The notes under the pieces were generated by a model. It was not told the origin of the DNA and searched no databases. It saw nothing but the letters and a program-made list of their open reading frames with translations. Below are positions 24,031 through 60,080 of a stretch of DNA of 64,000 bases, piece after piece. The position numbers and the translations under genes are program-made. The DNA is taken from positions 1,054,001 through 1,118,000 of the forward strand of contig BROI01000008.1 in NCBI GenBank assembly GCA_027923505.1. Direction: 5' to 3'. The stretch is from Mayamaea pseudoterrestris (Eukaryota). Each line of letters starts with the position of its first letter. Position 1 is the first letter of the stretch.

Positions 24031-24036
24031 TGTTTT

Positions 24037-33000: not shown

Positions 33001-36000
33001 GCACAGACACCGAACTTGTTTGTCTTCACACCACAGCCACTGCCAGAACTGCTGCTGTATTCAAAGTTCCAAGCCTTGACTTAGCCCAAAGTTCATTCGG
33101 TGGCCAGTTATACAACATCAACTTTGATGTGTGGAACCTACTTGCTATATCCACTTGCTAACCACTGGCTGACTGGCTTCCAAATTGGAACATCTCAACC
33201 AAGGACTTTGTCAAACAGCTTATCCTGATTGCCATGGCATGCTCAGAATCATGCTTGCAAGGTTGGATCATCACATAAATCCCAACTGAAACTTTGCTGT
33301 GTTTGGCACATGGAACACCCTCCTTGTTTCAGTCTCAGACACACCACAGCCACTGCCAGAATAGCTACTGTTTTCAAAGTTCCAAGCCTTGGACCTTGTC
33401 AAGCACCTTCTGCGGATTGCAGTAGCAGATTCAGATCCTTGGTGGCCAGGTTGCATCACTATACAAATCCCATCTGAAACTTTGACATGGTGGAACCACT
33501 TGGAGGAACCTACTTGCTATATTCACGCATAACCACTGGCTGACTGGCTTCCAAATTGGAACATCTCAACCTTTGACATTGTCAAACATCCTATCCTGAT
33601 TGCCAAGGCATGCTCAGAATCATGCTAGCAACGTTGGATCAAGACATAAATCCCAACTGTAACTTTACTGTATTTGGCACATGAAACACCCTACTTGTTT
33701 CAGTCTCAGTCACACCACAGCCCCTGCCAGAATTGCTGCTGTATTCAAAGTTCCAAGCCTTGGACCTTGTCAAGCACCTTCTGCGGATTGCAGTAGCAGG
33801 TTCAGATTCTTGCTGGCCAGGTTGCATCACTATACAAATCCCATCTGAAACTTTGATGTGGTGGAACCACTTGGAGGAACCTACTTGCTATATTCACGCA
33901 TAACCACTGGCTGACTGGCTTCCAAATTGAAACATCTCAACCTTTGACTTTGTCAAACATCTTATCCTGATTGCCATGGCATGCTCAGAATCATGCTAGC
34001 AAGGTTGGATCATCACATAAATCCCAACTGAAACTTTGCTGTGTTTGGCACATGGAGCACCCTCCTTGTTTCAGTCTCAGTCACACCACAGCCACTGCCA
34101 GAATAGCTGCTGTTTTCAAAGTTCCAAGCCTTCAACCTTGTCAAGCACCTTCTGCGGATTGCAGTAGCATGTTCAGATTCCTGCTGGCCAGGTTGCATCA
34201 CTATACAAATCCCATCTGAAACTTTGATGTGGTGGAACCACTTGTAGGAAACCTACTTGCTATATTCACGCTTGACCACTGGCTGACTGGCTTCCAAATT
34301 GAAACATCTCAACCTTTGACTTTGTCAAACATCTTATCCTGATTGCCATGGCATGCTCAGAATCATGCTAGCAAGGTTGGATCATCACATAAATCCCAAC
34401 TGAAACTTTGCTGTGTTTGGCACATGGAGCACCCTACTTGTTTCAGTCTCAGTCACACCACAGCCACTGCCAGAATAGCTGCTGTTTTCAAAGTTCCAAG
34501 CCTTGGACCTTGTCAATCACCTTCTGGGGAATGCAGTAGCAGGTTCAGAATCTTGCTGGCCAGGTTGCATCACTATACAAATCCCATCTGAAACTTTGAT
34601 GTGGTGGAACCACTTGGAGAAACCTACTTGCTATATTCACGCTTGACCACTGGCTGACTGGCTTCCAAATTGGAACATCTCAACCTTTGACTTTGTCAAA
34701 CATCTTATCCTGATTGCCATGGCATGCTCAGAATCATGCGAGCAAGGTTGGATCATCACATAAATCCCAACTGAAACTTTGCTGTGTTTGGCACATGGAG
34801 CACCCTCCTTGTTTCAGTCTCAGTCACACCACAGCCACTGCCAGAATAGCTGCTGTTTTCAAAGTTCCAAGCCTTGGACCTTGTCAAGCACCTTCTGTGG
34901 ATTGCAGTAGCAGGTTCAGATTATTGCTGGCCAGGTTGCATCACTATACAAATCCCATCTGAAACTTTGATGTGGTGGAACCACTTGGAGAACCCTACAT
35001 GCTATATTCACGCTTGACCACTGGCTGACTGGCTTCCAAATTGAAACATCTCAACCTTTGACTTTGTCAAACATCTTATCCTGATTGCCATGGCATGCTC
35101 AGAATCATGCTAGCAAGGTTGGATCATCACATAAAACCCAACTGAAACTTTGCTGTGTTTGAAACATGAACCTACTTGTTTCAGTCTCAGTCACACCACA
35201 GCCACTGCCAGAATAGCTGCTGTTTTTAAAGTTCCAAGCCTTGGACCTTGTCAAGCACTTTCTGCGGATTGCAGTAGCAGGTTCAGATTCTTGCTGGCCA
35301 GCTTGCATCACTATACAAATCCCATCTGAAACTTTGATGTGGTGGAACCACTTGGAGAACCCTACATGCTATATTCACGCTTGACCACTGGCTGACTGGC
35401 TTCCAAATTGAAACATCTCAACCTTTGACTTTGTCAAACATCTTATCCTGATTGCCATGGCATGCTCAGAATCATGCTAGCAAGGTTGGATCATCACATA
35501 AATCCCAACTGAAACTTTGCTGTGTTTGGCACATGGAGCACCCTCCTTGTTTCAGTCTCAGTCACACCACAGCCACTGCCAGAATAGCTGCTGTTTTCAA
35601 AGTTCCAAGCCTTCAACCTTGTCAAGCACCTTCTGTGGATTGCAGTAGCAGGTTCAGATTCCTGCTGGCCAGGTTGCATCACTATACAAATCCCATCTGA
35701 AACTTTGATGTGGTGGAACCACTTGGAGGAACCTACTTGCTATATTCACCCTTGACCACTGCCTGACTGGTTTCCAAATTGAAACATCTCAACCTTGGAC
35801 TTTGTCAAACAGCTTATCCTGATTGCCATGGCATGCTCAGAATCATGCTAGCAAGGTTGGATCATCACATAAATCCCAACTGAAACTTTGCTGTGTTTGG
35901 CACATGGAGCACCCTCCTTGTTTCAGTCTCAGACACACCACAGCCACTGCCAGAATAGCTGCTGTTTTCAAAGTTCCAAGCCTTGGACCTTGTCAATCAC

Positions 36001-39000
36001 CTTCTGGGGAATGCAGTAGCAGGTTCAGAATCTTGCTGGCCAGGTTGCATCACTATACAAATCCCATCTGAAACTTTGATGTGGTGGAACCACTTGGAGA
36101 AACCTACTTGCTATATTCATGCTTGACCACTGGCTGACTGGCTTCCAAATTGGAACATCTCAACCTTTGACTTTGTCAAACATCTTATCCTGATTGCCAT
36201 GGCATGCTCAGAATCATGCGAGCAAGGTTGGATCATCACATAAATCCCAACTGAAACTTTGCTGTGTTTGGCACATGGAGCACCCTCCTTGTTTCAGTCT
36301 CAGTCACACCACAGCCACTGCCAGAATAGCTGCTGTTTTCAAAGTTCCAAGCCTTGGACCTTGTCAAGCACCTTCTGTGGATTGCAGTAGCAGGTTCAGA
36401 TTATTGCTGGCCAGGTTGCATCACTATACAAATCCCATCTGAAACTTTGATGTGGTGGAACCACTTGTAGGAACCTACTAGCTATATTAACGCTTGACCA
36501 CTGGCTGACTGGCTTCCAAATTGGAACATCTCAACCTTTGACTTTGTCAAACATCTTATCCTGATTGCCATGGCATGCTCAGAATCATGCTAGCAAGGTT
36601 GGATCATCACATAAACCCCATCTGAAACTTTGCTGTGTTTGGCACATGCAACACCCTACTTGATTCAGTCGAATTCACACCACAGCCACTGCCAGAATAG
36701 CTGCTGTTTTCAAAGTTCCAAGCCTTCAACCTTGTTAAGCACCTTCTGGGGATTGCAGTAGCAGGTTCAGAATCTTGCTGGCCAGGTTGCATCACTATAC
36801 AAATCCCATCTGAAACTTTGATGTGGTGGAACTACTTGTTGGAACCTACCTGCTATATTCACACATAACCACCACCTGACTGGCTTCCAAATTGAAACAT
36901 CTCAACCTTTGACTTTGTCAAACATCTTATCCTGATTGCGATTGCCATGGCATGCTCAGAATCATGCTAGCAAGGTTGGATCATCACATAAAACCCAACT
37001 GAAACTTTGCTGTGTTTGAAACATGAACCTACTTGTTTCAGTCTCAGTCACACCACAGCCACTGCCAGAATAGCTGCTGTTTTTAAAGTTCCAAGCCTTG
37101 GACCTTGTCAAGCACTTTCTGCGGATTGCAGTAGCAGGTTCAGATTCTTGCTGGCCAGCTTGCATCACTATACAAATCCCATCTGAAACTTTGATGTGGT
37201 GGAACCACTTGGAGAACCCTACATGCTATATTCACGCTTGACCACTGGCTGACTGGCTTCCAAATTGAAACATCTCAACCTTTGACTTTGTCAAACATCT
37301 TATCCTGATTGCCATGGCATGCTCAGAATCATGCTAGCAAGGTTGGATCATCACATAAATCCCAACTGAAACTTTGCTGTGTTTGGCACATGGAGCACCC
37401 TCCTTGTTTCAGTCTCAGTCACACCACAGCCACTGCCAGAATAGCTGCTGTTTTCAAAGTTCCAAGCCTTCAACCTTGTCAAGCACCTTCTGTGGATTGC
37501 AGTAGCAGGTTCAGATTCCTGCTGGCCAGGTTGCATCACTATACAAATCCCATCTGAAACTTTGATGTGGTGGAACCACTTGGAGGAACCTACTTGCTAT
37601 ATTCACCCTTGACCACTGCCTGACTGGTTTCCAAATTGAAACATCTCAACCTTGGACTTTGTCAAACAGCTTATCCTGATTGCCATGGCATGCTCAGAAT
37701 CATGCTAGCAAGGTTGGATCATCACATAAATCCCAACTGAAACTTTGCTGTGTTTGGCACATGGAGCACCCTCCTTGTTTCAGTCTCAGACACACCACAG
37801 CCACTGCCAGAATAGCTGCTGTTTTCAAAGTTCCAAGCCTTGGACCTTGTCAATCACCTTCTGGGGAATGCAGTAGCAGGTTCAGAATCTTGCTGGCCAG
37901 GTTGCATCACTATACAAATCCCATCTGAAACTTTGATGTGGTGGAACCACTTGGAGAAACCTACTTGCTATATTCATGCTTGACCACTGGCTGACTGGCT
38001 TCCAAATTGGAACATCTCAACCTTTGACTTTGTCAAACATCTTATCCTGATTGCCATGGCATGCTCAGAATCATGCGAGCAAGGTTGGATCATCACATAA
38101 ATCCCAACTGAAACTTTGCTGTGTTTGGCACATGGAGCACCCTCCTTGTTTCAGTCTCAGTCACACCACAGCCACTGCCAGAATAGCTGCTGTTTTCAAA
38201 GTTCCAAGCCTTGGACCTTGTCAAGCACCTTCTGTGGATTGCAGTAGCAGGTTCAGATTATTGCTGGCCAGGTTGCATCACTATACAAATCCCATCTGAA
38301 ACTTTGATGTGGTGGAACCACTTGTAGGAACCTACTAGCTATATTAACGCTTGACCACTGGCTGACTGGCTTCCAAATTGGAACATCTCAACCTTTGACT
38401 TTGTCAAACATCTTATCCTGATTGCCATGGCATGCTCAGAATCATGCTAGCAAGGTTGGATCATCACATAAACCCCATCTGAAACTTTGCTGTGTTTGGC
38501 ACATGCAACACCCTACTTGATTCAGTCGAATTCACACCACAGCCACTGCCAGAATAGCTGCTGTTTTCAAAGTTCCAAGCCTTCAACCTTGTTAAGCACC
38601 TTCTGGGGATTGCAGTAGCAGGTTCAGAATCTTGCTGGCCAGGTTGCATCACTATACAAATCCCATCTGAAACTTTGATGTGGTGGAACTACTTGTTGGA
38701 ACCTACCTGCTATATTCACACATAACCACCACCTGACTGGCTTCCAAATTGAAACATCTCAACCTTTGACTTTGTCAAACATCTTATCCTGATTGCCATG
38801 GCATGCTCAGAATCATGCTAGCAAGGTTGGATCATCACATAAAACCCAACTGAAATTTCTGTGTTTTGGCCCATAGAACACCCTACTTGTTTCAGTCTCA
38901 GTCACACCACAGCCACTGCCAGAATTGCTGCTGTATTCAAAGTTCCAAGCCTTGGATCTTGTCAAGCACCCTCTGCAGATTGCAGTAGCAGGTTTAGATT

Positions 39001-39081
39001 CTTGGTGGCTAGGTTGCATCACTATTCAAATCCCATCTGAAACTTTGATGTGGTGGAACCAATTGGAGGAACCTTTGCTAT
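24037..39081 (+). repeat. 371-bp satellite array, left arm (~40 monomers)
   Basis: Head-to-tail units, e.g. aaatcccaactgaaac at 30173 and 30544 (period 371). ORF-track hits recur at ~371-bp spacing. Confidence 0.99.
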
Positions 39082-39174
39082 TTGCCAGACCAAAGCCGCG
39101 GGACTCGGATGCAAACCTTTAGCTACAGTCTCGTAACCTAGTAATCTCAAAGTTGCAGAAGATTGTAACGTCTG

Positions 39175-39708
39175 CTAGTAGACAAGGTCGTGAGCAACCC
39201 TCAAATTAGGACGGCGCCCTGGATAGCCTTGAGCGTTGACTTCCTGGGAGCTTTCTCGAAGGTAATGCTGCACAGAAGGAGCAGACCATCTGAGACGGAA
39301 AGCAATCTCCTGTATATCAAGACCTGCGTTTTGCAAGGCAACAGCTGCTGTGACCCTGTTGGAATGGGCCACTATGCGGGTCACATTCTGGCGGAGGAAA
39401 TGTTTTGGGTTTGGGTATGCTCCAACCACTGCTGCCCGCATCACTTTAATAATGTCGCGAGACTGGAGATAGTCATAACTCCCCGTGGCTGATGTGTGGA
39501 AGACTCCCAATGGCTCTTTGAAAGGCTTGCGGTGTAGGCAACGCGCTCTGCCAATGATGGATATGCTTGCGGCGATGGGGCAAATGAATGGATGCCCCGA
39601 GCGCTTAAATTTTCGTATGGTGAAATTGGTTTGGCTCTTGTCATAGCGAAAGCGCAGGTGCAGTTCTGCTGCTGAACTCTGATGCTGGAGCAACTTGTCA
39701 GCACTGCG
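39175..39708 (-). CDS. Tyrosine recombinase, C-terminal catalytic part (5' part replaced by satellite sequence)
   Basis: LRFRYDKS, ICPIAA, AHSNRVTAAVAL and RLRWSAPSVQHYLRES give the H-x-x-R, W and catalytic Y motifs of DIRS-type recombinases. Confidence 0.88.
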   Translation of the reverse strand, partial: RSADKLLQHQSSAAELHLRFRYDKSQTNFTIRKFKRSGHPFICPIAASISIIGRARCLHRKPFKEPLGVFHTSATGSYDYLQSRDIIKVMRAAVVGAYPNPKHFLRQNVTRIVAHSNRVTAAVALQNAGLDIQEIAFRLRWSAPSVQHYLRESSQEVNAQGYPGRRPNLRVAHDLVY

Positions 39709-40415
39709 TTCAAAGTTCCAAGCCTTGGACCTTGTCAAACACCTTCTGCGGATTGCAGTAGCAGGTTCAGATTCTGTGTTGTAGTGTTGCATCACTTTAC
39801 AAATCCACTGGCATTTTTGTGGGGCCCCCTGGACCGATATTCACACATAATCACTGCCTGACTGGCTTCCAAATTGGAACATCTCAACCTTTGACTTTGT
39901 CAAACAAACCTATCCCTGATTGCCATGGCATGCTCAGAATCATGCTTGCAAGGTTGGATCATCACATAAATCCCAACTGAAATTTTGCTGTGTTTGCAAC
40001 AACATGAACAGTCTCAGTACACCACACCACTGCCAGAATTGCTGCTGTATTCAAAGTTCCAAGCCTTGGACCTTGTCAAACACCTTCTGCGGATTGCAGT
40101 AGCAGGTTCAGATTCTTGGTGGCCAGGTTGCATCACTTTTACAAATCCCATCTGAAACTTTGATGTGGTGGAACCACTTGGAGGAACCTACTTGCTATAT
40201 TCACACATAAGCCACTGGCTGACTATGGTGGCTCCAACTGAACATCCAACCTTTCCTGATTCTGGCTCTCATCTTCAGGTTGGATCATCACATAAATCCC
40301 AACTGAAACTTTTGCTGTGTTTGGCACCATGAACACACGTTTCCAAGTCACACCACAGCCACTGCCAGAATTGCTGCTGTATTCAAAGTTCCAAGCCTTG
40401 GACTTTGTCAAACAC
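39709..40415 (+). repeat. ~2 degenerate 371-bp satellite monomers inside the retroelement
   Basis: Satellite sequence (ttcaaagttccaagccttggacc ... gactttgtcaaacac) is interleaved with short non-satellite patches. Confidence 0.9.
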
Positions 40416-42906
40416 GCATATTGAACTTGCAGCTTGCCAGGTTGTCATTGTTAAGCCTCCACATGAAGAGCAAGGTGAGGTTCCAGCCTCCTATACCTTT
40501 GGTACTGGCGTCGCTTTTCATGATGTTGGTAGGTTCGCGAGCTACCATGAGGCCAATGGGTTTGTGCCAGACGTGCTGCCATTTTGGATTGTTGAGTGTA
40601 GGATACAACATGCGTAGATCATCCAGCACCTCCTTTGATAACAAAATCCTTCCTTTACGCCACCAAGCTCGAGTGCTTGGTTTCTTAGAGTCATTGACTC
40701 TGCGTTTCTTGCTGTCAAGTCTCTTTGCTTGCTCATCTGCCTGGCGCGCCGCATCAGAAAGCGATTGTTGCACTCGAATGGCGAGGAAATCGGCTAGGTC
40801 GGCGACGAAAGCACCATGCCGCATGAGGCCCACTAAAGAAGATTTGTCGGCTGCCGTGATAATTACCTGTTTGAATTGTTTGTTCTGTAGCCATTCGTCA
40901 TTCATTTGCTCGAGCATAATGGCGAGCTTGCGTTGCTTAGCATCCGGCCATCCAACTGTCATGCGGCGCGTATCCCAGTCGAGGCCAAGGTATGTTAGCT
41001 GATGGGAGACATCGCATTTCCATTTCCTGTCATTGATACACGGGGAGCGATGCCTGGGGTTTGGCTCGCCAAAAACCACTCGAGCGGCAATGACACTGCG
41101 GTGAATGGCTTCCTGGATAGTAGCTCGTGTTGCCACCACCCCTTGATCATCCACAAAGCTCGAGAAGCCGTACTTGTAATCTGGACCAAGCAGATTGTCG
41201 GTACCCGTGTTGTAACAATCCCGCACTGCTGTGACAATAGTGGGTTCTTGGCAGGACTAAGATGGTAAAGTCCGTGGACCCAATATAAGGGTCGCTTGTC
41301 CCGGGATTCCCCAGTCTCAGTCACGCCACCACCAAAGATCATTCCAACTGGGATCACCAACCAGTGGTCTAACACCGTAGCAAATGCGACCGCAATATCT
41401 GGATGGTAATGTAACCAACGGAACGCGGCTGAAATATCGTCTGCCGCAATGTACAACTCCTCTTGTGGATGGTCCAGGCGAAGATTGTAGATTAACTTGA
41501 CCAGTCGGTGGATAACAGAGCCATAGTAGACCTTTGGATTTTGTTGTTCGTCGTGGTCTGTAGTTCTGAGCTTTGCAATCTGACTATTGACATTGCCGCG
41601 ATCCCCAGGATAAAAGGGCGTTGATGGGTCGTTAATGAGGCGGCCCTCGTCGCCAACTCTGCCTGGCTTGGGCGGTATGTAGGAGATGAGTGCTAGGAAG
41701 AGTCCTGGAATATACTTCCAGAGAAAATGAGGAAACATGATGTGATATGACAGTTTCTCCTCCTTTCTGTATTTCTCCATGACGTCGTCCCAGCAATGCT
41801 CCAGGCCTCGATTGTTTTCTTTTTCCCGCTTTGCAACGTCCCTAATAGGGCAGCGGAACTTGCTGATACCAGGAACGCCCTCGTCGATGGCGTGCAGTGC
41901 CTTGTCGAAAGCAATGGGTGGGTAATCCCTTAGGATGACCTTGCGCCGGACCGCTGTGATAACGTCGCGACAAAGATGCCTTGTTGAAAGCAATGGGTGG
42001 GTAATCCCTTGGGATGACCTTGCGCCGGACCGCTGTGATAACGTCGCGACAAAGAGAGCGATCTTGATTTTGCTGTGTATATTCTCCTCCCAGCCACCGG
42101 AGCAGGTCACCATAATTAAAATCACACCGAAGCAGCGCGGCTCCCATGTCCAGAACTCGAGTGGGGCAAATAGGGGTTAAGTCTAGCGCTGGATAATGGC
42201 GTTCGACACGTAGGTGATGGACCGCTCTTGTCGATGTGCGGTAGCGTAAGCTTGCGTATTCATGCGTCTTGTCGCGGAGTGTGAAGGCCATGAGTCGCCG
42301 CAGCGACACACGTAGGTAATCCCACATGATATGTACGATGTGGAAAAAGGAAGGGCAGTCATGCTCCGTCTGGAGATTGTCTGTTTCCTTCCCCCAACCT
42401 TGTCGTCGGCGCGACCAGACCAAGTCGTCCAAATGTAGCATACTCGCCGAGCCGTAAAGCGGGTGATTATTCTGAGGGTTTGCGGCCTGGAGAGCCAGAG
42501 AGTCTTCTGTATCAAGGAAAGGCCAAACAGGCGCAATCACTGTAGCGAAATATTGATTATAGTCCACAAGCGCTGGCCACGCCACTTTTGAATGCGGCTG
42601 CTGTCGTCGTAGGTTTTGTTTTCGAGGCTGTGCAGTATCATTGAATGGCGGTAGCAGCGACCTGAGCGACGATGTTGCTGTCGATGTTTCTGTCTGCTCA
42701 TGTTGAATGGCCGGCGCTGTCGGAGCGATGACCCGAGGAGGTGCGGGAAGTGTCGGAGCGGTGTCACGAGTAGGTGCGCTTGCTGAAACTGTGATGGTGG
42801 TGGCTGCGAGGCGCTCCAAAGGATCGGCCATCGCCGGTGCCGGAACAATGGGCGTCCCGCTGCCTCGTGGGGCGACTGCTGGGCGCGAGTCGATGATGCT
42901 TGGCAA
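40416..42906 (-). pseudogene. Reverse transcriptase / RNase H of the DIRS-type element, split over three ORFs
   Basis: RT motifs GRLIND, ADDISAAFRWLHYHPD, IPVGMIFG, FVDD (41157-41146) and LTYLGLDWDT, then RNase H KSDASTKGIGGW. Frameshifts at ~41900-42050 and ~41230-41330. Confidence 0.9.
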
Positions 42907-42912
42907 TGGTAG

Positions 42913-45900
42913 TCAGGAGGAGGTAATGCGCGTGTATTCGGCGGTTGCTTGGAATTTTGCTCTGACGGGCCCTCGCTGAAGAAAATTAGTCAACTGCAAC
43001 AGGCTTTCTCGTGTCCATGGCTGTTGCGTTTGCCGGATGTCAATTTCACAGCGATTACAAGCGGCCGAATTGCACCCTTGCATGCCAGCAATGATGAACG
43101 GGAAGCAAACTTGTTTCCCTTGCAGGATTGGAGCCGATATCTGAGCTCTTGTCCATGTTCCCAAAATATCTTTCACATTTCGCACAGATGGTTCTGGATT
43201 GTCCACAAAACGAATTAATGGCACTGGCGCACGACGGTACGTACCAACGTTTGGCGGCAGCTGGCGTTGCTGTTGCTGTGGCGGATGTTGTTGCTGCTGG
43301 GGATTGTGTCGCGGATTACCCAGCGCGGCGACCCGATCTGGTCTCACCGCCGGGTTTGCCTGCTGTTGTAATGGCCTAGCCGGTTGTATGTCTGGCAAGA
43401 TAGCTTGACTATAGAAAGCATTGATTGGCAATGTGTGTGCGGTAAATACCGTTGCGTTGAATGAGCTGCTGCAATCCTGTCGCCAGTCGTGAAGGACTGT
43501 TTTAAGTGTGGCGTAGTCGCGGACTCTGATGCTTGTCTCAAAAACGCAAAGGTCAGAGCGTGCCGGTTCCTCCCAGAGAAGAATTGGTAAGCAGTGTTGT
43601 TCCATGGTATGCGTCACTGCCCAATCAAGAAATATTTGAATGAGGTTGCTGAGGCTGACGAGGACAGCGTTTGAGGCTGCGACTTGATGACGAGCCGGCA
43701 TACGATCCCAAGCTTGCTGTGTTTGACTCTTGGAAAGGTGTTCAACCAGCCAGTGTAGATGACCGGCGAAAGGAGACGAGACCATGAATGGAGAGAGCTC
43801 ATCGTTCAATTGCTGTAGATGACGGAAGCGACTCGGAAAATGGAAGACGACGTGTAGCCACCAACCAAGATTTTTAATCAACTGCACCATTTTATTGCAA
43901 GGAACTCCCTCCCCTGGTAGGCGAAAGGTATTGCCAAGAATGGTAGGGAGGAAGTGGTAGGGTGTAATGCTCGCGCTCAGTGCGGATGGAGAAACTTGGA
44001 AAGTTGTACCCGCGGACACCACTCCCGACTGTAATGCCCTGAGTATTTCAGTCTTGGTGTAGAAGGTATCACCCTCGAGCAGTGGCCGGAAGTATGTAGG
44101 AAAGGACGAGCGTAATGTTGCTTCATATTCTGTCTGTAGGAAATTGCGCATGAATACGCAACTGCTTGCTCACGATCCTGGCAGATGGAATCCAACAACT
44201 GGAATGCCATGGGCTCAACGCCTAATGGGCAGCTGACGGAGTTGAGCATGGCGCCCTTCACGAACAACTGTCGCCTTGTAGGATACTGTTCCGTAGATTA
44301 GGGTTCCCATGGCAGGCTCGGTCATGTAGCTTTGCATTTGAGTCGTCAATTGCTCAAACGGCAGGTACAGACCCGAGGCAACTGCCAGTTGTACCGTTGG
44401 CTGATGCCGCTGAGGGAGCTTCATTCTTGGAGGCGTTGAAGGAGGGTTCGGTGGACGTTTGGAGCCCACGTATTTGACTGAATCTCCGTCTTCACTAGTC
44501 TGGTGATGAGACACGAATAGTGTTTTAGCTGTGCCAGGAAGTCCGTCCGCTCGTTTGCGTCGTTCGTCGTCATACCAAGATGGCGGGTTTCTGTCTGGGT
44601 CGTTATGTTTCAACTGCAGCGGAGAGCCAACTCCAGCACTGAACCAGTCATTAAAAACCTGCGCTACCAAGTCTCCAATGGGTGGTCTTGACCTTGTCGT
44701 TGCCGCGGAGCTTGGAGTGTTGTTTTCCATGTGAGAAGTCTTTGTAACGATGCGCAGCTTTGCTAGATCCGCTGCCGAGGTGGAGGCCGAGATATCCACA
44801 CGAGCGAAGCGATCTAACCAACTCGGGAGTCCTTGGCGAAGGAAATTGATCTCAAATTGTTTGCACCAGTTGGATGTCTTTATGTTCAACAATCCTGCGA
44901 GATACCACATGTTTTCCATGCGGGTTTCGTGAAACTTTGCCATCTGTGGCGAGTTTTGAAAGATGGTCTGTGCGTTTTGTCCCAGCAAAATAAGCTTGTC
45001 GTGCCAGTTTGGTTCTAAAGTATGTACCAAGTGATCCCACAAGATTTTTGATCGAATGACTAGCTCAGGATGATGAAACGTTTGTTGTGCAAGCAACGAT
45101 GACTTTTCTTTCCAGGCCTCCCAAGTGGCTGTCACCTGCGACATGATCCATGTTTCAGTTTTCATGTCGTCGGCACTCTCTCTGCATCCCTTGAGCCAAA
45201 TAGTGAGAAGGCGATTGTCGTCCATCCAGTCGTATACTTCATTTGGCAGCCCCGTAAAGGCGATGCAGTGCGCTTTCAACTGCTCGGCTGTAGTGCAGAC
45301 GGCCGGATCCAATGGTAAACCGATCGGCATGCCGTGGTTTGGAGGGAGAAAGAAGCACCCCAAATCTTTGTTGTCGAATGCTGTAACTCTCTATCGGTGG
45401 CGTACGCTAAAACTGGCTTTTCTCCATATTGATATAAAGGCGGGCCCTCCCAGTGGCCAGTGCCTCCAATAAGCTCGTGCTCGAACGAGCCTGCGTCTGG
45501 CAGTTCTTCCTCGTGAATGCAGAGCATCACAGGTTGTAGCATCTTGTCACCGCGCGGAAATACAGCCATGTCCATCTTGATTTCCTCGAACCATTCTTCA
45601 CGTGTAGACTGCAATGGGGCTCGTGTTTGCCTTGATAGACTCGCGAGGATTGGAACCATTGCTTGAGGCGCGTCAAACCCGCTGGGTGATAGCAAGAGTG
45701 TCGGCTCGACCGGGTCGTCAGTATCCGACAGACCTTCATTATCCATCTCTGGTCCATTGGTAACTGAATGGCCGAGCTTTGTGTCATGGAGAGAATACTT
45801 TTCGCCAAGCGCCGTTCCTGACGGCATGGCTGAGCAAATGATAACCAGCTGCTCTTTTCCTGGGTGCGTTTCATCAGCGCCCGGGGCTCCTGCGCCCGAG

Positions 45901-46244
45901 TACTGCTTGCGTAAGGATGAGAGTGTCAAGATGCCTCCAATATTTTCCGTCGTTAAGAGCTTGAGGCGAGTAGGCGTTCCATGCCACATGTGTTTTCCAT
46001 CACCGTCGAGGCCTTCCTGCTTGGTCATCTCCTTGTTCAAAGCGTAAACTTCCTCCTTCGTCAGGACCACCTGCCCTTCAGTCCAACCATCAATCTGCAA
46101 CTCCATAGCTGCGGCTCTCTCCTCTCTCTTGGGCGTCTCCTCCCCCAGCCACGTAGTCGAGGCCTTGGTTTGGATCGGCAAACGGAAAGCAGGCGAAGCG
46201 CCCCCAAACTCTTTGAGAGCTCCAGGGAAACGGACGAGCGTCAT
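42913..46244 (-). pseudogene. ORF1 (gag-position, ~1100 codons) of the DIRS-type element, several frameshifts/stops; ends in a Gln/Pro-rich linker and Cys-rich finger
   Basis: Overlapping minus ORFs 45276-46439, 44215-45363, 43977-44267 and 42913-44151. C-terminal CFPFIIAGMQGCNSAACNRC lies just upstream of the RT ORF. That these were one ORF is inferred. Confidence 0.65.
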
Positions 46245-46531
46245 GATCAAGAAAACGAGAGAATAGGGAGCAAAGAAAACGCGGTTCGAGCAACAAAGGC
46301 AAGAACAAACAACAGAGAGCTTGCTAGACAACAACAAGGTCGGCAAGCTAACCAAAGGAATGGGAGGCAACCCGATCAACATCGGCATGTGGTCTGCCCG
46401 TTGTCGGTAGCTGTTCCCATTCTTCTCTCCCCGCACCACTGATGATGTGACTATCGATCACAGTGTACTCATAAGGGTATCTTATGAGTGTCCCCAAGGC
46501 AGTCTCCTCAAAGCATCCGCCCTGAGCCGGA

Positions 46532-49500
46532 CCATGGCATGCTCAGAATCATGCTAGCAAGGTTGGATCATCACATAAATCCCAACTGAAACTTTGCTGT
46601 GTTTGGCACATGGAGCACCCTCCTTGTTTCAGTCTCAGTCACACCACAGCCACTGCCAGAATAGCTGCTGTTTTCAAAGTTCCGAGCCTTGGACCTTGTC
46701 AAGCACCTTCTGTGGATTGCAGTAACAGGTTCAGATTATTGCTGGCCAGGTTGCATCACTATACAAATCCCATCTGAAACTTTGATGTGGTGGAACCACT
46801 TGGAGGAACCTACTAGCTATATTCATGCTTGACCACTGGCTGACTGGCTTCCAAATTGGAACATCTCAACCTTTGACTTTGTCAAACATCTTATCCTGAT
46901 TGCCATGGCATGCTCAGAATCATGCTAGCAAGGTTGGATCATCACATAAACCCCATCTGAAACTTTGCTGTGTTTGGCACATGGAACACCCTACTTGATT
47001 CAGTCGCATTCACACCACAGCCACTGCCAGAATAGCTGCTGTTTTCAAAGTTCCAAGCCTTCAACCTTGTGAAACACCTTCTGTGGATTGCAGTAGCAGG
47101 TTCAGAATCTTGCTGGCCAGGTTGCATCACTATACAAATTCCATCTGAAACTATGATGTGGTGGAACCACTTGGAGGAACCTACTTGCTATATTCACGCT
47201 TGACCACTGGCTGACTGGCTTCCAAATTGGAACATCTCAACCTTTGACTTTGTCAAACATCTTATCCTAATTGCCATGGCATGCTCAGAATCATGCTAGC
47301 AAGGTTGGATCATCACATAAATCCCAACTGAAACTTTGCTGTGTTTGGCACATGGAGCACCCTACTTGTTTCAGTCTCAGTCACACCACAGCCACTGCCA
47401 GAATAGCTGCTGTTTTCAAAGTTCCAAGTCTTGGACCTTGTCAAGCACCTTATGAGGATTGCAGTAGCAGGTTCAGATTCTTGCTGGCCAGGTTGCATCA
47501 CTATACAAATCCCATCTGAAACTTTGATGTGGTGGAACCACTTGGAGGAACCTACTTGCTATATTCACACTTGACCACTGGCTGACTGGCTTCCAAATTG
47601 GAACATCTCAACCTTTGACTTTGTCAAACATCTTATCCTGATTGCCATGCCATGCTCAGAATCATGCTAGCAAGGTTGGATCATCACAAAAATCCCAACT
47701 GAAACTTTGCTGTGTTTGGCACATGGAGCACCCTACTTGTTTCAGTCTCAGTCACACCCCAGCCACTGCCAGAATAGCTGCTGTTTTCAAAGTTTCAAGC
47801 CTTGGACCTTGTCAAGCACCTTCTGTGGAATGCAGTAGCAGGTTCAGAATCTTGCTGGCCAGGTTGCATCACTATACAAATCCCATCTGAAACTTTGATG
47901 TGGTGGAACCACTTGGAGAAACCTACTTGCTATATTCACGCATAACCACCAACTGACTGGCTTCCAAATTGGAACATCTCAACCTTTGACTTTGTCAAAC
48001 ATCTTATCCTGATTGCCATGGCATGCTCAGAATCATGCTAGCAAGGTTGGATCATCACATAAATCCCATCTGAAACTTTGCTGTGTTTGGCACATGGAAC
48101 ACCCTACTTGATTCAGTCGCATTCACACCACAGCCACTGCCAGAATAGCTGCTGTTTTCAAAGTTCCAAGCCTTCAACCTTGTGAAACACCTTCTGTGGA
48201 TTGCAGTAGCAGGTTCAGAATCTTGCTGGCCAGGTTGCATCACTATACAAATTCCATCTGAAACTATGATGTGGTGGAACCACTTGGAGGAACCTACTTG
48301 CTATATTCACGCTTGACCACTGGCTGACTGGCTTCCAAATTGGAACATCTCAACCTTTGACTTTGTCAAACATCTTATCCTAATTGCCATGGCATGCTCA
48401 GAATCATGCTAGCAAGGTTGGATCATCACATAAATCCCAACTGAAACTTTGCTGTGTTTGGCACATGGAGCACCCTACTTGTTTCAGTCTCAGTCACACC
48501 ACAGCCACTGCCAGAATAGCTGCTGTTTTCAAAGTTCCAAGCCTTGGACCTTGTCAAGCACCTTCTGCGGATTGCAGTAGCAGGTTCAGATTCTTGCTGG
48601 CCAGGTTGCATCACTATACAAATCCCATCTGAAACTTTGATGTGGTGGAACCACTTGGAGGAACCTACTTGCTATATTCACACTTGACCACTGGCTGACT
48701 GGCTTCCAAATTGGAACATCTCAACCTTTGACTTTGTCAGACATCTTATCCTGATTGCCATGCCATGCTCAGAATCATGCTAGCAAGGTTGGATCATCAC
48801 AAAAATCCCAACTGAAACTTTGCTGTGTTTGGCACATGGAGCACCCTACTTGTTTCAGTCTCAGTCACACCACAGCCACTGCCTGAATAGCTGCTGTTTT
48901 CAAAGTTCCAAGCCTTGGACCTTGTCAAGCACCTTCTGCAGATTGCAGTAGCAGGTTCAGATTCTTGCTGGCCAGGTTGCATCACTATACAAATCCCATC
49001 TGAAACTTTAAATGTGGTGGAACTACTTGTCGGAACCTACCTGCTATATTCATGCTTGACCACTGGCTGTCTGGCTTCCAAATTGGAACATCTCAACCTT
49101 TGACTTTGTCAAACATCTTATCCTGATTGCCATGGCATGGTCAGAATCATGCTAGCAAGGTTGGATCATCACATAAACCCCATCTGAAACTTTGCTGTGT
49201 TTGGCACATGGAACACCCTACTTGATTCAGTCGCATTCACACCACAGCCACTGCCAGAATAGCTGCTGTTTTCAAAGTTCCAAGCCTTGGACCTTGTCAA
49301 GCACCTTATGCGGATTGCAGTAGCAGGTTCAGAATCTTGCTGGCCAGGTTGCATCACTATACAAATATGAAACATAACACGAATCACACATAACCACCAC
49401 GTGACTGGCTTCCAAATTGGAACATCTCAACCTTTGACTTTGTCAAACATCTTATCCTGATTGCCATGGCATGCTCAGAATCATGCTAGCAAGGTTGGAT

Positions 49501-52500
49501 CATCACATAAATCCCAACTGAAACTTTGCTGTGTTTGGCACATGGAGCACCCTCCTTGTTTCAGTCTCAGTCACACCACAGCCACTGCCAGAATAGCTGC
49601 TGTTTTCAAAGTTCCGAGCCTTGGACCTTGTCAAGCACCTTCAGTGGATTGCAGTAACAGGTTCAGATTATTGCTGGCCAGGTTGCATCACTATACAAAT
49701 CCCATCTGAAACTTTGATGTGGTGGAACCACTTGGAGGAACCTACTAGCTATATTCACGCTTGACCACTGGCTGACTGGCCTCCAAATTGGAACATCTCA
49801 ACCTTTGACTTTGTCAAACATCTTATCCTGATTGCCATGGCATGCTCAGAATCATGCTAGCAAGGTTGGATCATCACATAAACCCCATCTGAAACTTTGC
49901 TGAGTTTGGCACATGGAGCACCCTCCTTGTTTCAGTCTCAGTCACACCACAGCCACTGCCAGAATAGCTGCTGTTTTCAAAGTTCCAAGCCTTGGACCTT
50001 GTCAAGCACCTTCTGCGGATTGCAGTAGCAGGTTCAGATTCTTGCTGGCCAGGTTGCATCACTATACAAATCCCATCTGAAACTTTAAATGTGGTGGAAC
50101 TACTTGTCGGAACCTACCTGCTATATTCATGCTTGACCACTGGCTGACTGGCTTCCAAATTGGAACATCTCAACCTTTGACTTTGTCAAACATCTTATCC
50201 TGATTGCCATGGCATGCTCAGAATCATGCTAGCAAAGTTGGATCATCACATAAATCCCAACTGAAACTTTGCTGTGTTTGGCACATGGAGCACCCTACTT
50301 GTTTCAGTCTCAGTCACACCACAGCCACTGCCAGAATAGCTGCTGTTTTCAAAGTTCCAAGCCTTGGACCTTGTCAAGCACCTTCTGCGGATTGCAGTAG
50401 CAGGTTCAGATTCTTGCTGGCCAGGTTGCATCACTATACAAAGTCCATCTGAAACTTTGATGTGGTGGAACCACTTGGAGGAACCTACTAGCTATATTCA
50501 CGCTTGACCACTGGCTGACTGGCTTCCAAATTGGAACATCTCAACCTTTGACTTTGTCAAACATCTTATCCTGATTGCCATGGCATGCTCGGAATCATGC
50601 TAGCAAGGTTGGATCATCACATAAATCCCAACTGAAACTTTGCTGTGTTTGGCACATGGAGCACCCTACTTGTTTCAGTCTCAGTCACACCACAGCCAAT
50701 GCCAGAATAGCTGCTGTTTTCAAAGTTCCAAGCCTTGGACCTTGTGAAGCACCTTCTGTGGATTGCAGTAGCAGGTTCAGGTTCTTGCTGGCTAGGTTGC
50801 ATCACTATACAAATCCCATCTGAAACTATGATGTGGTGGAACCACTTGTAGGAACCACTTGTAGGAACCTACTTGCTATATTCACGCATAACTACCGACT
50901 GACTGGCTTCAAAATTGGAACATCTCAACCTTTGACTTTGTCAAACATCTTATCCTGATTGCCATGGCATGCACAGAATCATGCTAGCAAGATTGGATCA
51001 TCACATAAATCCCAACTGAAACTTTGCTGTGTTTGGCACATGGAACACCCTACTTGTTTTAGTCTCAGTCACACCACAGCCACTGCCAGAATGGCTGCTG
51101 TTTTTAAAGTTCCAAGCCTTGGACCTTGTCAAGCACCCTCTGCAGATTGCAGTAGCAGGTTCAGAATCTTGCTGGCCAGGTTGCATCACTATACAAATCC
51201 CATCTGAAACTTTGATGTGGTGGAACCACTTGTAGGAACCTACTTGCTTTATTCACGCTTAACCACTGGCTGACTGGCTTCCAAACTGAAACATCTCAAC
51301 CTTTGACTTTGTCAAACATCTTATCCTGATTGCCATGGCATGCACAGAATCATGCTAGCAAGGTTGGATCATCACATAAATCCCAACTGAAACTTTGCTG
51401 AGTTTGGCACATGGAGCACCCTCCTTGTTTCAGTCTCAGTCACACCACAGCCACTGCCAGAATAGCTGCTGTTTTCAAAGTTCCAAGCCTTGGACCTTGT
51501 CAAGCACCTTCTGCGGATTGCAGTAGCAGGTTCAGAATCTTGCTGGCCAGGTTGCATCACTATACAAACCCCATCTGAAACTTTGATGTGGTGGAACCAC
51601 TTGTAGGAACCTACTTGCTATATTCACGCATAACCACCGACTGACTGGCTTAAAAATTGGAACATCTCAACCTTTGACTTTGTCAAACATCTTATCCTGA
51701 TTGCCATGCCATGCTCAGAATCATGCTAGCAAGGTTGGATCATCACATAAATCCCAACTGAAACTTTGCTGTGTTTGGCACATGGAGCACCCTACTTGTT
51801 TCAGTCTCAGTCACACCACAGCCACTGCCAGAATAGCTGCTGTTTTCAAAGTTCCAAGCCTTGGACCTTGTCAAGCACCTTCTGCGGATTGCAGTAGCAG
51901 GTTCAGAATCTTGCTGGCCAGGTTGCATCACTATACAAATTCCATCTGAAACTTTGATGTGGTGGAACCACTTGTAGGAACCTACTTGCTATATTCACGC
52001 ATAACCACCGACTGACTGGCTTCCAAATTGGAACATCTCAACCTTGGACTTTGTCAAACATCTTATCCTGATTGCCATGGCATGCTCAGAATCATGCTAG
52101 CAAGGTTGGATCATCACATAAATCCCAACTGAAACTTTGCTGTGTTTGGCACATGGAGCACCCTACTTGTTTCAGTCTCAGTCACATCACAGCCACTGCC
52201 AGAATAGCTGCTGTTTTCAAAGTTCCAAGCCTTGGACCTTGTCAAGCACCATCTGCGGACTGCAGTAGCAGGTTCAGATTCTTGCTGGCCAGGTTGCATC
52301 ACTATACAAATCCCATCTGAAACTTTGATGTGGTGGAACCACTTGTAGGAACCTACTTGCTTTATTCACGCATAACCACTGGCTGACTGGCTTCCAAATT
52401 GGAACATCTCAACGTTTGACTTTGTCAAACATCTTATCCTGATTGCCATGGCATGCTCAGAATCATCATGCTAGCAAGGTTGGATCATCACATAAATCCC

Positions 52501-55500
52501 AACTGAAACTTTGCTGTGTTTGGCACATGGAGCACCCTCCTTGTTTCAGTCTCAGTCACACCACAGCCACTGCCAGAATAGCTGCTGTTTTCAAAGTTCC
52601 AAGCCTTGGACCTTGTCAAGCACCTTCAGTGGATTGCAGTAGCAGGTTCAGATTCTTGCTGGCCAGGTTGCATCACTATACAAATCCCATCTGAAACTTT
52701 GATGTGGTGGAACCACTTGTAGGAACCTACTAGCTATATTAACGCTTGACCACCGACTGACTGGCTTCCAAATTGGAACATCTCACCCTTTGACTTTGTC
52801 AAACATCTTATGCTGATTGCCATGGCATGCTCAGAATCATCATGCTAGCAAGGTTGGATCATCACATAAATCCCAACTGAAACTTTGCTGTGTTTGGCAC
52901 ATGGAACACCCTACTTGTTTCAGTCTCAGTCACACCACAGCCACTGCCAGAATAGCTGCTGTTTTCAAAGTTCCAAGCCTTGGACCTTGTCAAGCACCTT
53001 CTGTGGACTGCAGTAGCAGGTTCAGAATCTTGCTGGCCAGGTTGCATCACTATACAAATCCCATCTGAAACTTTGATGTGGTGGAACCACTTGTAGGAAC
53101 CTACTTGCTATATTCACGCTTGACCACTGGCTGACTGGCTTCCAAATTGAAACATCTCAACATTTGACTTTGTCAAACATCTTATCCTAATTGCCATGGC
53201 ATGCTCAGAATCATGCTAGCAAGGTTGGATCATCAAATAAATCCCAACTGAAACTTTGCTGTGTTTGGCACATGGAGCACCCTACTTGTTTCAGTCTCAG
53301 TCACACCACAGCCACTGCCAGAATAGCTGCTGTTTTCAAAGTTCCAAGCCTTCAACCTTGTTAAGCACCTTCTGGGGAATGCAGTAGCAGGTTCAGAATC
53401 TTGCTGGCCAGGTTGCATCACTATACAAAGTCCATCTGAAACTTTGATGTGGTGGAACCACTTGTAGGAACCTACTTGCTATATTCACGCTTGACCACTG
53501 GCTGACTGGCTTCCAAATTGGAACATCTCAACATTTGACTTTGTCAAACATCTTATCCTGATTGCCATGGCATGCTCAGAATCATGCTAGCAAGGTTGGA
53601 TCATCACATAAATCCCAACTGAAACTTTGCTGTGTTTGGCACATGGAGCACCCTCCTAGTTTCAGTCTCAGTCACACCACAGCCACTGCCAGAATAGCTG
53701 CTGTTTTCAAAGTTCCAAGCCTTGGACCTTGTCAAGCACCATCTGTGGACTGCAGTAGCAGGTTCAGATTCCTGCTGGCCAGGTTGCATCACTATACAAA
53801 TCCCATCTGAAACTTTGATGTGGTGGAACCACTTGTAGGAACCTACTTGCTATATTCACGCTTAACCACTGGCTGACTGGCTTCCAAATTGGAACATCTC
53901 AACATTTGACTATGTCAAACATCTTATCCTGATTGCCATGGCATGCTCAGAATCATGCTAGCAAGGTTGGATCATCACATAAATCCCAACTGAAACTTTG
54001 CTGTGTTTGGCACATGGAACACCCTACTTGATTCAGTCGCATTCACACCACAGCCACTGCCAGAATAGCTGCTGTTTTCAAAGTTCCAAGCCTTCAACCT
54101 TGTCAAGCACCCTCTGCGGATTCCAGTAGCAGGTTCAGATTATTGCTGGCCAGGTTGCATCACTATACAAATCCAATCTGAATTTTTTATGTGGTGGAAC
54201 CACTTGTAGGAACCTACTAGCTATATTCACGCTTGACCACTGGCTGACTGGCTTCAAAATTGGAACATCTCAACCTTTGACTTTGTCAAACATCTTATCC
54301 TGATTGCCATGGCATGCTCAGAATCATGCTAGCAAGGTTGGATCATCACATAAACCCCATCTGAAACTTTGCTGTGTTTGGCACATGCAACACCCTACTT
54401 GATTCAGTCGCATTCACACCACAGCCACTGCCAGAATAGCTGCTGTTTTCAAAGTTCCAAGCCTTCAACCTTGTGAAACACCTTCTGTGGATTGCAGTAG
54501 CAGGTTCAGAATCTTGCTGGCCAGGTTGCATCACTATACAAATTCCATCTGAAACTTTGATGTGGTGGAACCACTTGGAGGAACCTACTTGCTATATTCA
54601 CACTTGACCACTGGCTGACTGGCTTCCAAATTGGAACATCTCAACCTTTGACTTTGTCAAACATCTTATCCTGATTGCCATGGCATGCTCAGAATCATGC
54701 TAGCAAGGTTGGATCATCACATAAATCCCAACTGAAACTTTGCTGTGTTTGGCACATGGAGCACCCTACTTGTTTCAGTCTCAGTCACACCACAGCCACT
54801 GCCAGAATAGCTGCTGTTTTCAAAGTTCCAAGCCTTGGACCTTGTCAAGCACCTTCTGCGAATTGCAGTAGCAGGTTCAGATTCTTGCTGGCCAGGTTGC
54901 ATCACTATACAAATTCCATCTGAAACATTGATGTGGTGGAACCACTTGGAGGAACCTACTTGCTATATTCACGCTTGACCACTGGCTGACTGGCTTCCAA
55001 ATTGGAACATCTCAACCTTTGACTTTGTCAAACATCTTATCCTAATTGCCATGGCATGCTCAGAATCATGCTAGCAAGGTTGGATCATCACATAAACCCC
55101 ATCTGAAACTTTGCTGTGTTTGGCACATGCAACACCCTACTTGATTCAGTCGCATTCACACCACAGCCACTGCCAGAATAGCTGCTGTTTTCAAAGTTCC
55201 AAGCCTTCAACCTTGTGAAACACCTTCTGTGGATTGCAGTAGCAGGTTCAGAATCTTGCTGGCCAGGTTGCATCACTATACAAATTCCATCTGAAACTTT
55301 GATGTGGTGGAACCACTTGGAGGAACCTACTTGCTATATTCACACTTGACCACTGGCTGACTGGCTTCCAAATTGGAACATCTCAACCTTGGACTTTGTC
55401 AAACATCTTATCCTGATTGCCATGGCATGCTCAGAATCATGCTAGCAAGGTTGGATCATCACATAAATCCCAACTGAAACTTTGCTGTGTTTGGCACATG

Positions 55501-58500: not shown

Positions 58501-58824
58501 TCTCAGTCACACCACAGCCACTGCCAGAATAGCTGCTGTTTTCAAAGTTCCAAGCCTTGGACCTTGTCAAGCACCTTCTGTGGACTTGCAGTAACAGGTT
58601 CAGATTATTGCTGGCCAGGTTGCATCACTATACAAATCCCATCTGAAACTTTGATGTGGTGGAACCACTTGGAGGAACCTACTTGCTATATTCACAAATA
58701 ACCACCAACTGACTGGCTTCCAAATTGGAACATCTCAACCTTTGACTTTGTCAAACATCTTATCCTGATTGCCATGGCATGCTCAGAATCATGCTAGCAA
58801 GGTTGGATCATCACATAAATCCCA
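46532..58824 (+). repeat. 371-bp satellite array, right arm (~33 monomers)
   Basis: Same monomer and orientation as the left arm. Resumes at ccatggcatgc (46532) and ends at tcacataaatccca (58824). Confidence 0.99.
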
Positions 58825-59229
58825 TTCCTCTTATGTTTGTTGATATTTTGAGCCAATGCTGTGGTGACTATCACCCCGATATCCACCAGCCTGTCTGCCA
58901 TGGTGGGACTGGGCAGATCCAATAACTCGTTGGATCTGCCAGCGGTGCACCTCAAGTGGCACTTCAGACTGCCAGAATGGCCTGCCAACTCTGGAATACT
59001 AAAGACATTATGTTTTATAATGGATAAGGATGATGCAAAGGCTTGTCACTAGGGGTGTGTAACCCATTCCTTTGCCATGAGACTCTGCACATTCCACAAA
59101 TGATTGAATGTGCCAGCGGTGCACCCTTTTTGGCTCAGGAATCATCTGTGTTGCCCGCGGAGCCCACCAATCCATTTCATTTCATGTTTGATGTCATGAT
59201 GGGCAAATGCGTTGGTCAGTTGCACCCAG

Positions 59230-60080
59230 AATGTCACGGCATCTGTGGGCTAAGACTGGTAAGAAGTTCTAACCAGTCACATCACAGTCTACTGGTTCAC
59301 CAGCCAGGCACACCATCTTGTAGCGCAACCTAAATAAAGATGTTGGCACCATTCTGGTGTGATTCGGGTGTATACATGGCATGTTGTATGGGCAAGTAAA
59401 TGTCACATCAGCAGCATGCTGAGACTGGTGACAACTTGTCACCAATCACATTGCAGTCTACTGAGACACCAGCCAGTCATACCATCTTGTAGCGCAGCCT
59501 GAAAAATGATGCTGTCATCATTCTGGTGTGATTTGGGTGTATGCATGGCATGTTATATGGGCAGTTGAATGTCACGGCATCTTTGGTTTGAGACTGGTAA
59601 GAAGTTCTCACCAGTCACATTGACGTCTACTGAGACACCAGCCAGGCATACCATCTTGTAGTGATCACTGAATAATGATGTTGGCACCATTCTGGTCTGA
59701 TTTGGGTGTATACATGGCACGTTATATGGGCAATTGAATGCCACGGCATCTATGAGCTGAGACTGGTGAGAGGTTCTCACCAGTCACATTGCAGCCTACT
59801 GAGACACCAGCCAGTCATACCATTTTGTAGCGCACACTGAATTAATGATGTTGGCACCATTATGGTGTGGTGGGGGTGTATACATGGCATGGTATATGAG
59901 CATTTGAATGTCCAGGCATCTGTGGGCTGAGACTGGTGACAAGTTGTCACCAATCACATTGCAGTCTGCTGAGACACCAGCCAGGCATACCAACTTATAG
60001 TGCAGCCTAAATGATGATGTTGGCACCATTCATGTGTAATTTGGGTGTATACATGGCATGTTATAGGGGCAATTGAATGT
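59230..60080 (-). repeat. 169-bp repeat family, right cluster (~5 copies), inverted relative to 23490-24030
   Basis: ttggcaccatt (reverse complement of aatggtgccaa) at 59343, 59681, 59851 and 60020, with a diverged copy near 59512. Confidence 0.92.

Follow-up and report, generated by a model that had tools for sequence, protein, structure and literature searches.

A dead and probably rearranged tyrosine-recombinase retrotransposon in a 371-bp satellite of the diatom Mayamaea pseudoterrestris

Tyrosine recombinase (YR) retrotransposons, which are rare and little studied, are reverse-transcribed, circularised via a repeat module and inserted into the chromosome by recombination, no DDE integrase taking part. 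The element analysed in this work lies in a stretch of 64,000 nucleotides from the diatom Mayamaea pseudoterrestris (assembly GCA_027923505.1, contig BROI01000008.1, positions 1,054,001 to 1,118,000 of the forward strand), which will be called the window and to which all coordinates refer. It is a retroelement of 7,450 bp, located at 46531..39082 on the minus strand, between the two parts of a 371-bp satellite. With a probability of about 0.8, it can be interpreted as a dead, rearranged copy of a diatom YR retrotransposon belonging to the DIRS order, with a layout closest to that of Ngaro, in which the middle of the pol region has been replaced by satellite DNA.

Two sets of relatives have been used for the comparison. 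For the first, 1.84 billion representative proteins were searched with HMMER (phmmer), the query being the frame at 41256..40408, which covers part of the reverse transcriptase (RT) and of RNase H; this set consists of 285 relatives at E ≤ 1e-3. The second comes from a scan of metagenome contigs with an alignment of YR sequences, which gave 79 loci, 16 of the long ones being read for open reading frames (ORFs) and the 24 loci of at least 6 kb being inspected for repeats.

Closest described elements and placement of the family

In the literature, split direct repeats are defined by a downstream layout of the type B1-A2-B2 (PMC4157794, PMC8547959). DIRS1-like elements possess inverted terminal repeats, an internal complementary region and a methyltransferase domain, while the PAT elements combine split direct repeats with a methyltransferase domain, forming part of the methyltransferase-bearing DIRS group (PMC4157794).

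The element and its relatives share RT, RNase H and YR with DIRS-1. However, no inverted pair of at least 25 nt exists in the window element (39082-46531), only direct repeats were noted in the self-comparisons of the relatives, and Pfam detects no methyltransferase family in either 10 or 36 of them. The same three enzymes, together with a repeat module that recalls split direct repeats of the type A1-B1-A2-B2, bring the family near to the PAT-like elements (Pat1, Toc, Kangaroo), from which it is separated by the methyltransferase that PAT has (PMC4157794) and that was not found in the diatom family. The likeness to Ngaro is broader, including an ORF1 followed by RT-RNase H and then YR on one strand, a recombinase instead of a DDE integrase, a region from RNase H to YR in which no methyltransferase domain was found, and a repeat module located downstream of YR in the relatives. 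Taking the layout as a guide, rather than an RT or YR tree, the family would fit Ngaro best. The "DIRS-type" label given to the element in a first-pass annotation, made from the sequence alone, is appropriate if the DIRS order is taken in its broad sense, although the layout, with neither inverted repeats nor a detectable methyltransferase domain, is nearer to Ngaro than to DIRS1.

Among the stramenopiles, four Ngaro types of ~6 kb have been described in Cafeteria burkhardae (PMC8547959), whereas the units of the diatom family measure 8.2-9.8 kb. Moreover, RT, RNase H and YR of the Cafeteria elements match the Pfam families PF00078, PF17919 and PF00589 (PMC8547959), while none of the three enzymes reaches the threshold in the diatom family. 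The latter is also distinguished by an ORF1 of ~1,100 aa, by having ORF1 and ORF2 in the same frame across one stop, and by a YR encoded in the -1 frame or fused. The window copy departs further from the Cafeteria elements, as it lacks any repeat module.

Predicted enzymes and architecture of the intact relatives

The best matches of the RT-RNase H frame are hypothetical proteins of M. pseudoterrestris itself (P0002, 78% identical, and P0004, 56%), and the ten of the 285 relatives that were looked up are all unnamed or hypothetical proteins. P0002, P0004 and P0006 contain RT, RNase H and YR within a single protein, and 222 shorter proteins match residues 480-884 of P0002. The AlphaFold2 model of P0002 has a mean pLDDT of 60, residues 50-430 being well predicted, and 10 of its 11 best matches in Foldseek are the RTs of cauliflower mosaic virus, foamy virus, Moloney murine leukaemia virus, human immunodeficiency virus, xenotropic murine leukaemia virus-related virus and Ty3, the first of these being the best one (E 4e-3, probability 0.92). 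The nearest named clusters of the ESM-Atlas carry RVT_1 (score 0.90), which serves as a lead only. As regards RNase H, the relatives conserve the motifs DAS, HIN-LEF, DNTSA and AD-LSR, whereas the domain of the window copy is cut after the first of them. According to these sequences and models, the predicted RT is of the LTR-retroelement type and is followed by a predicted RNase H, as in the YR retrotransposons.

The evidence for the recombinase comes from both alignments and structure prediction. In an alignment of 49 YR relatives, R216, K287, H378, R381, W404 and Y412 are invariant, and when the profile of this alignment was compared with the PDB, Cre appeared in 17/17 rows (best E 0.026). 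The AlphaFold2 model of the YR protein P0161 (pLDDT 90) matches Cre in Foldseek with an E-value of 1e-5 and a target TM-score of 0.66. This model has 32 matches at E ≤ 1e-3, with Cre, Tre and the Tn1549 integrase among the matches listed, while XerH and lambda integrase rank just below that threshold. With the window YR frame, a sequence search of the PDB returned nothing meaningful, and Phage_integrase was detected by Pfam in 3 of 36 aligned relatives (best E 0.036). No DDE integrase family was found by Pfam in any frame scanned, including those of the window and ten relatives. The relatives are, therefore, predicted to encode a tyrosine recombinase with the residues R-K-HxxR-W/H-Y, and no DDE integrase. 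The motifs singled out in the first-pass annotation, FVDD for RT, DAS for RNase H and HSNR..RW..Y for YR, could all be placed at defined positions (Table 1).

A Crypton, which would carry a YR without RT, was also considered and has been ruled out, RT and RNase H being collinear with YR in both the window and the relatives.

In the 16 loci read for ORFs, the relatives possess an ORF1 of 1,059-1,288 aa and an ORF2 (RT-RNase H) of 930-976 aa, which lies in the frame of ORF1 after one stop. The YR ORF is found in the -1 frame, overlapping the end of ORF2, in 9 of the 16 loci; it has the same frame without overlap in one, it is fused to ORF2 in two, and the remaining four loci contain decayed copies. 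The continuous arrangement ORF1-stop-ORF2 in a single frame is present in 7/16 loci, and in one more across a contig-end overlap. The loci with the single-stop layout between ORF1 and pol are L035, L038, L056, L061, L062, L066 and L015, and the window element has its own stop at 42913-42915. Since this layout is repeated in the loci of the relatives, the stop of the window copy should be regarded as a family feature and not as a sign of decay. The arrangement suggests that readthrough of the stop and a -1 frameshift into YR could be used as expression devices.

ORF2 of the relatives ends soon after AD-LSR, with the YR ORF overlapping or fused. The fused pol-YR form (P0002, P0004 and P0006; L051 and L056) lacks both the AD-LSR motif and the C-terminal tail of ORF2, and RNase H may be incomplete in this subgroup. 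In L006 and L008, an ORF1-like stretch stands directly before the end of RNase H and YR, RT being missing, so that this relative may be an internally deleted, non-autonomous derivative.

Weak relatives of the window ORF1 pieces were found upstream of pol in six metagenome loci, and one protein of M. pseudoterrestris, P0160, matches ORF1 at 47-48%. The long ORF1 noticed in the first reading does exist as a region of ~1,158 codons (46388..42916), although it is now broken by a frameshift and stops.

Decay of the window copy and the satellite inside it

Comparison by tblastn with P0152, P0004, P0002 and P0006 locates pol at 42729..40411, in the successive frames -2, -3 and -2. The first of the two frame changes coincides with a 79-bp tandem duplication (41898-42055), which is skipped in other copies of the family present in public sequencing runs (joint 41969->42056). 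The second coincides with a gap opposite residues 42-87 of P0002, a place where another copy has 196 nt and the window 144. Later, pol is interrupted. Residues 360-716 of P0002, which comprise the remainder of RNase H, the linker and the N-terminal half of YR with its box-I arginine, have no counterpart in the window, and in the homologue P0001 "FKMR" is followed by the E and D motifs of the RNase H domain, at the point where the window enters satellite DNA. The alignment is resumed in the YR fragment at 39699..39235, which corresponds to residues 717-871 of P0002 (93% identity), the last ~13 YR residues being out of frame relative to this protein. ORF1 has acquired one frameshift, near 45276-45390, and in-frame stops at two places, 44215-44217 and 44170-44172. 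Taking into account the frameshifts in pol, the lost stretch of RNase H and YR, and the stops in ORF1, the window copy is, as judged from its reading frames, a dead and rearranged relic, predicted to have lost its mobility.

The interruption consists of a block of the same satellite that surrounds the element (39709-40415), which had been overlooked in the first-pass annotation and at which both the RNase H and the YR domain are truncated. Thus, ~1.07 kb of pol (~357 codons) are replaced by 707 bp of satellite. With the monomer numbered so that phase 1 corresponds to window position 46532, the block runs from phase 142 to phase 175, that is, ~1.9 monomers, in the orientation of the array. Its identity to the array consensus is 83.5-88%, whereas its own repeats, with a period of ~332-341, are 91-98% alike, and because of this difference it has to be considered a distinct satellite variant rather than a degraded part of the array as it stands today.

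The CpG content of the different segments offers an indication of the order of events. Both arrays and the trapped piece have an observed/expected (o/e) CpG ratio of 0.10-0.12, in comparison with 0.90 in the large piece of the element, 0.71 in the other piece and 1.07 in the neighbouring genes. Within the satellite, TpG/CpA reaches 1.6-1.8 and TpA o/e is mildly depleted (0.42-0.45, versus 0.59 in genes), with no such depletion in the element. Since the ratio of ~0.1 is shared by the arrays and the trapped piece, against 0.9 and 0.71 in the element, these values suggest that the element was rearranged with a satellite that was already present and had previously been depleted of CpGs.

From these data, a sequence of steps can be proposed. 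The element would have come to lie in a pre-existing, CpG-depleted 371-bp satellite; the copy would then have lost its 3' repeat module and ~1.07 kb of pol, and the lost stretch would have been replaced by a diverged form of the same satellite, ~1.9 monomers in length. This last step might have taken place through the repair of a break, with nearby or related satellite sequences being copied in as filler or, alternatively, two partial copies could have been left side by side after deletions. The situation resembles the relics found in satellite heterochromatin and the filler DNA found at repaired breaks, in that a dead element stands in a homogenised array and a foreign patch occupies an internal break. 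It differs from them in that the filler would here be satellite DNA inside a transposon, by a mechanism that we infer.

The proposal that two independent partial copies, a 3' YR fragment and a 5' ORF1-RT fragment, lie 707 bp apart in an older array is possible, although doubtful. Identity to P0002 is 93.5% (144/154) for the YR piece and 78.7% (214/272) for the RT piece, and the resulting distance ratio, 3.57, is above the range of 1.13-2.20 obtained in nine other pairs compared; the divergence of the trapped monomers from the array consensus, together with their mutual similarity, would also agree with an older array. Nevertheless, the two pieces are collinear, sharing one orientation and following each other in the correct order, and a single replacement is a simpler explanation than a pair of truncated insertions or of deletions. 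Furthermore, conservation is generally higher at the YR end, and P0002, or the ancestor of the element, may itself be a recombinant.

Several results weigh against the interpretation of the locus as a single YR retrotransposon with a satellite replacement. As regards the enzymes, Phage_integrase, the sole Pfam match over seven frames of the element, stays below threshold in the window YR (E 0.0066; 16.7 bits versus a cut-off of 27.1); Pfam returns no family for RT and RNase H in the window frames, nothing at E ≤ 0.01 in ten relatives, and no RVT family in 36 aligned relatives, whose profile has no match among PDB sequences either; and no Foldseek match of the P0002 model for RT attains E ≤ 1e-3. 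As regards the junctions, the phases read 289 | 142 ... 175 | 1, none of them being continuous, and the half-monomer phase is likewise not exact; 82 bp of monomer are missing between the outer flanks, so that no clean insertion site can be reconstructed; and, among the matches listed from the public runs, no independent contig bridges 39708|39709 or 40415|40416. In addition, no locus contains the two ends of one integrated copy, so that the equality of A1 with A2, the other half of a split direct repeat, is putative.

Satellites are prone to misassembly, and this, together with the lack of bridging contigs just mentioned, would leave room for the internal block being an artefact that joins two loci. 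Such an artefact is very unlikely, as the block represents a distinct variant rather than a copy of the flanking array, and contigs matching the interior of the element exactly are present in two public runs. Table 1 compiles the segments of the element under the preferred interpretation, that of one copy with its pol partly replaced.

Table 1. Features of the retroelement and of the 371-bp satellite (window positions; monomer phase as defined in the text)
Feature	Position	Strand	Remarks
371-bp satellite, left part	24036..39081	+	Tandem Repeats Finder and monomer map; ends at monomer phase 289; CpG o/e 0.12
3' fragment: C-terminal half of the putative tyrosine recombinase (K, HxxR, W, Y motifs)	39082..39708	-	Box-I Arg missing
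YR tyrosine motif VQHYL	39259-39273	-	
YR RLRW	39286-39297	-	
YR HSNR	39355-39366	-	
YR K-motif RFRYDKS	39634-39654	-	
Satellite inside the element	39709..40415	+	Same orientation as the arrays; CpG o/e 0.11
ORF2 (pol): N-terminal domain, RT (A, B, FVDD), first part of RNase H (SDAS)	40416..42912	-	Cut after "KFNMR"; two frame changes
RNase H SDAS	40504-40515	-	
RT FVDD	41146-41157	-	
Copy-specific deletion and frameshift site in RT	41241..41328	-	P0002 residues 42-87 without counterpart
RT motif B, IPVGMIFGG	41328-41354	-	
RT motif A, AADDISAAFR	41418-41447	-	
79-bp tandem duplication	41898..42055	-	97% identical; shifts the pol frame
In-frame stop between ORF1 and ORF2	42913..42915	-	Family feature
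ORF1 region, ~1,158 codons from first ATG	42916..46388	-	No Pfam family; broken
5' leader, 143 nt to the satellite junction	46389..46531	-	True end or truncation
371-bp satellite, right part	46532..58824	+	Tandem Repeats Finder and monomer map; starts at monomer phase 1; CpG o/e 0.10

Termini, satellite setting and meaning for the family

The absence of obvious long inverted or split direct terminal repeats from the window copy, indicated in the first reading, is corroborated by self-comparison, in which the sole direct repeats are the internal satellite and the 79-bp tandem duplication, and comparison of the element ends with each other or with the satellite gives scores at the level of shuffled sequences. 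It had also been proposed that this lineage has atypical termini, a claim that the relatives do not sustain. Downstream of YR, a pair of direct repeats is found in 13 of the 24 loci of at least 6 kb, with copies of 108-653 bp and a start-to-start spacing of 349-669 bp in 12 of the 13, L034 having a 119-bp tandem pair. Such a pair resembles the B1-A2-B2 part of the split direct repeats. In L015, L037 and L060, the two repeats are 100% identical, 388-433 bp long and 16-35 bp apart, and L066 shows a 653-bp repeat with a 16-bp spacer. Given that the relatives carry this downstream module and that the window copy ends ~114 nt beyond the expected YR stop, with no split-repeat module, its terminal repeats were most likely lost by truncation, and their absence would not be a trait of the lineage.

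The ends of six contigs of relatives overlap (L015, L035, L037, L061, L062 and L066), with periods of 8.2-9.8 kb. These contigs may represent a circle, a head-to-tail tandem or a permuted repeat.

Contigs from four public runs were mapped onto 37500-48000. Exact pieces of the locus are present in two of the runs, and many further pieces are 10-18% diverged, which indicates that the family is multi-copy. No contig contains a head-to-tail circle junction of the window copy, and the one joint that "goes back" (47595->38039) connects satellite with satellite. The contigs of runs X2 and X4 continue past 46531 into one identical non-satellite sequence, so that either the element extends further 5' in other copies or this sequence is the non-satellite flank of another copy. 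A 28-nt loose end of a run contig past 46532 is not found in the window at ≤ 3 mismatches, and so it is not the 3' end of the element itself at this locus. In run X1, the summed contig depth is 12,000-21,000 over 46429-46531, in comparison with 100-900 in the interior of the element; this peak may be an averaging artefact of contigs entering the satellite, or it may reflect a high-copy terminal module. A contig of run X2 joins 44978 -> 46305 via AACCCTAAC, a filler resembling telomere repeats.

The 371-bp monomer is a dimer of ~185-bp units, ~67% alike, and identity to the array consensus is 93-99% for most of the 69 full array monomers, two of which are outliers (86% and 92%). The location of the element in the middle of this satellite, which had been estimated as ~15 kb and ~12 kb from the array ends, is confirmed (15.0 kb on the left and 12.3 kb on the right). 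A segment of ~1.85 kb (5 monomers) is duplicated within the left part (36900-39081 versus 35049-37218, 98.35% identical) and reaches the left junction of the element. This duplication was tested as a means of dating the insertion but, as it reaches the junction, it yields no order of events. On either side of the 371-bp array there is a 169-bp satellite, at 23487-24016 and 59229-60080, whose two blocks are 78-83% identical and in opposite orientations, the right one being on the minus strand, and a 176/353-bp satellite is located beyond the right block (60232-61250). Together, these satellites form a layered and roughly symmetric domain that adjoins ordinary genes, those on its left coding for a kinase, a NopRA1 protein, an RRM protein and a TauE exporter.

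The possibility that the lineage aims at the 371-bp satellite, either by sequence selectivity of the recombinase or by tethering through ORF1, with the array serving as a multi-copy landing pad, is unlikely. It is suggested by the position of the copy near the middle of the array and by what is reported for other elements, since DIRS-1 is enriched in the heterochromatic centromeres of Dictyostelium (PMC7192593), the Ngaro types of Cafeteria prefer virophage DNA, a preference that the authors link to ORF1 (PMC8547959), and YR elements have been reported in centromeric satellites of chordates (bioRxiv 10.64898/2026.09.17.752431). Among the relatives, L052 contains a 180/361-bp array (6606-7993, 7.8 copies) ~3.5 kb downstream of its repeat module, with a period that resembles that of the 185/371-bp satellite, although the sequences are unlike. 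However, only a single copy is available, its junction phases are discontinuous with 82 bp of monomer missing, and the continuation of the X2 and X4 contigs is not satellite. No second copy of the family was found in the window by tblastn with four full-length relatives, nor are there further ones in the 27 kb of array, and the genes on the left are ordinary ones. It has to be noted that a tandem array with a period of at least 60 is present in only 2 of the 79 loci of relatives (L041 and L052), a weak argument due to the loss of satellites from short-read assemblies.

By analogy, a wider version of this idea can be formulated, in which the family would seek centromeres or heterochromatin, its large ORF1 (~1,100 aa) tethering it to the satellite, the layered, CpG-depleted array would be a satellite centromere, and the window copy would be one of many hits, and an old one. 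This is a long shot but, if true, a satellite centromere would be new for diatoms.

The relation between element and satellite could also be the reverse, the 371-bp satellite having been born from the terminal repeat module of the element (1.5-2 tandem copies), with the copy in the array as the mother element. The module spacings of the relatives are 349-452 bp in 11 loci, a range that includes 371 bp. Nevertheless, this origin is hardly credible: neither end of the element resembles the satellite above the shuffle level, the satellite has no nucleotide match to any of the 79 loci, and the sequence past the 5' end in other copies is non-satellite. Moreover, the dimeric structure of ~185-bp units likens the satellite to its 169- and 176-bp neighbours, and its CpG o/e of 0.1 is far from the 0.9 of the element.

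In the literature searched, no description of such a family in diatoms has been found. The sole mention found for this group of organisms is the RepeatMasker class "LTR/Ngaro" in Chaetoceros muelleri (bioRxiv 10.64898/2026.04.27.720831), and "DIRS/Ngaro-like" elements appear among the repeats surveyed in marine stramenopiles in a review (PMC3145265).

In sum, the window copy is an ordinary dead copy of an unusual, poorly described family, whose interest resides more in its architecture than in its position in the satellite. Its unusual traits include RT, RNase H and YR domains that escape Pfam, a very large ORF1, a conserved stop between ORF1 and pol, a YR that is fused or encoded in the -1 frame, and contigs of circular or tandem appearance. 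The knowledge of this family will be useful for the annotation of diatom genomes, where such elements would otherwise be labelled "hypothetical protein".

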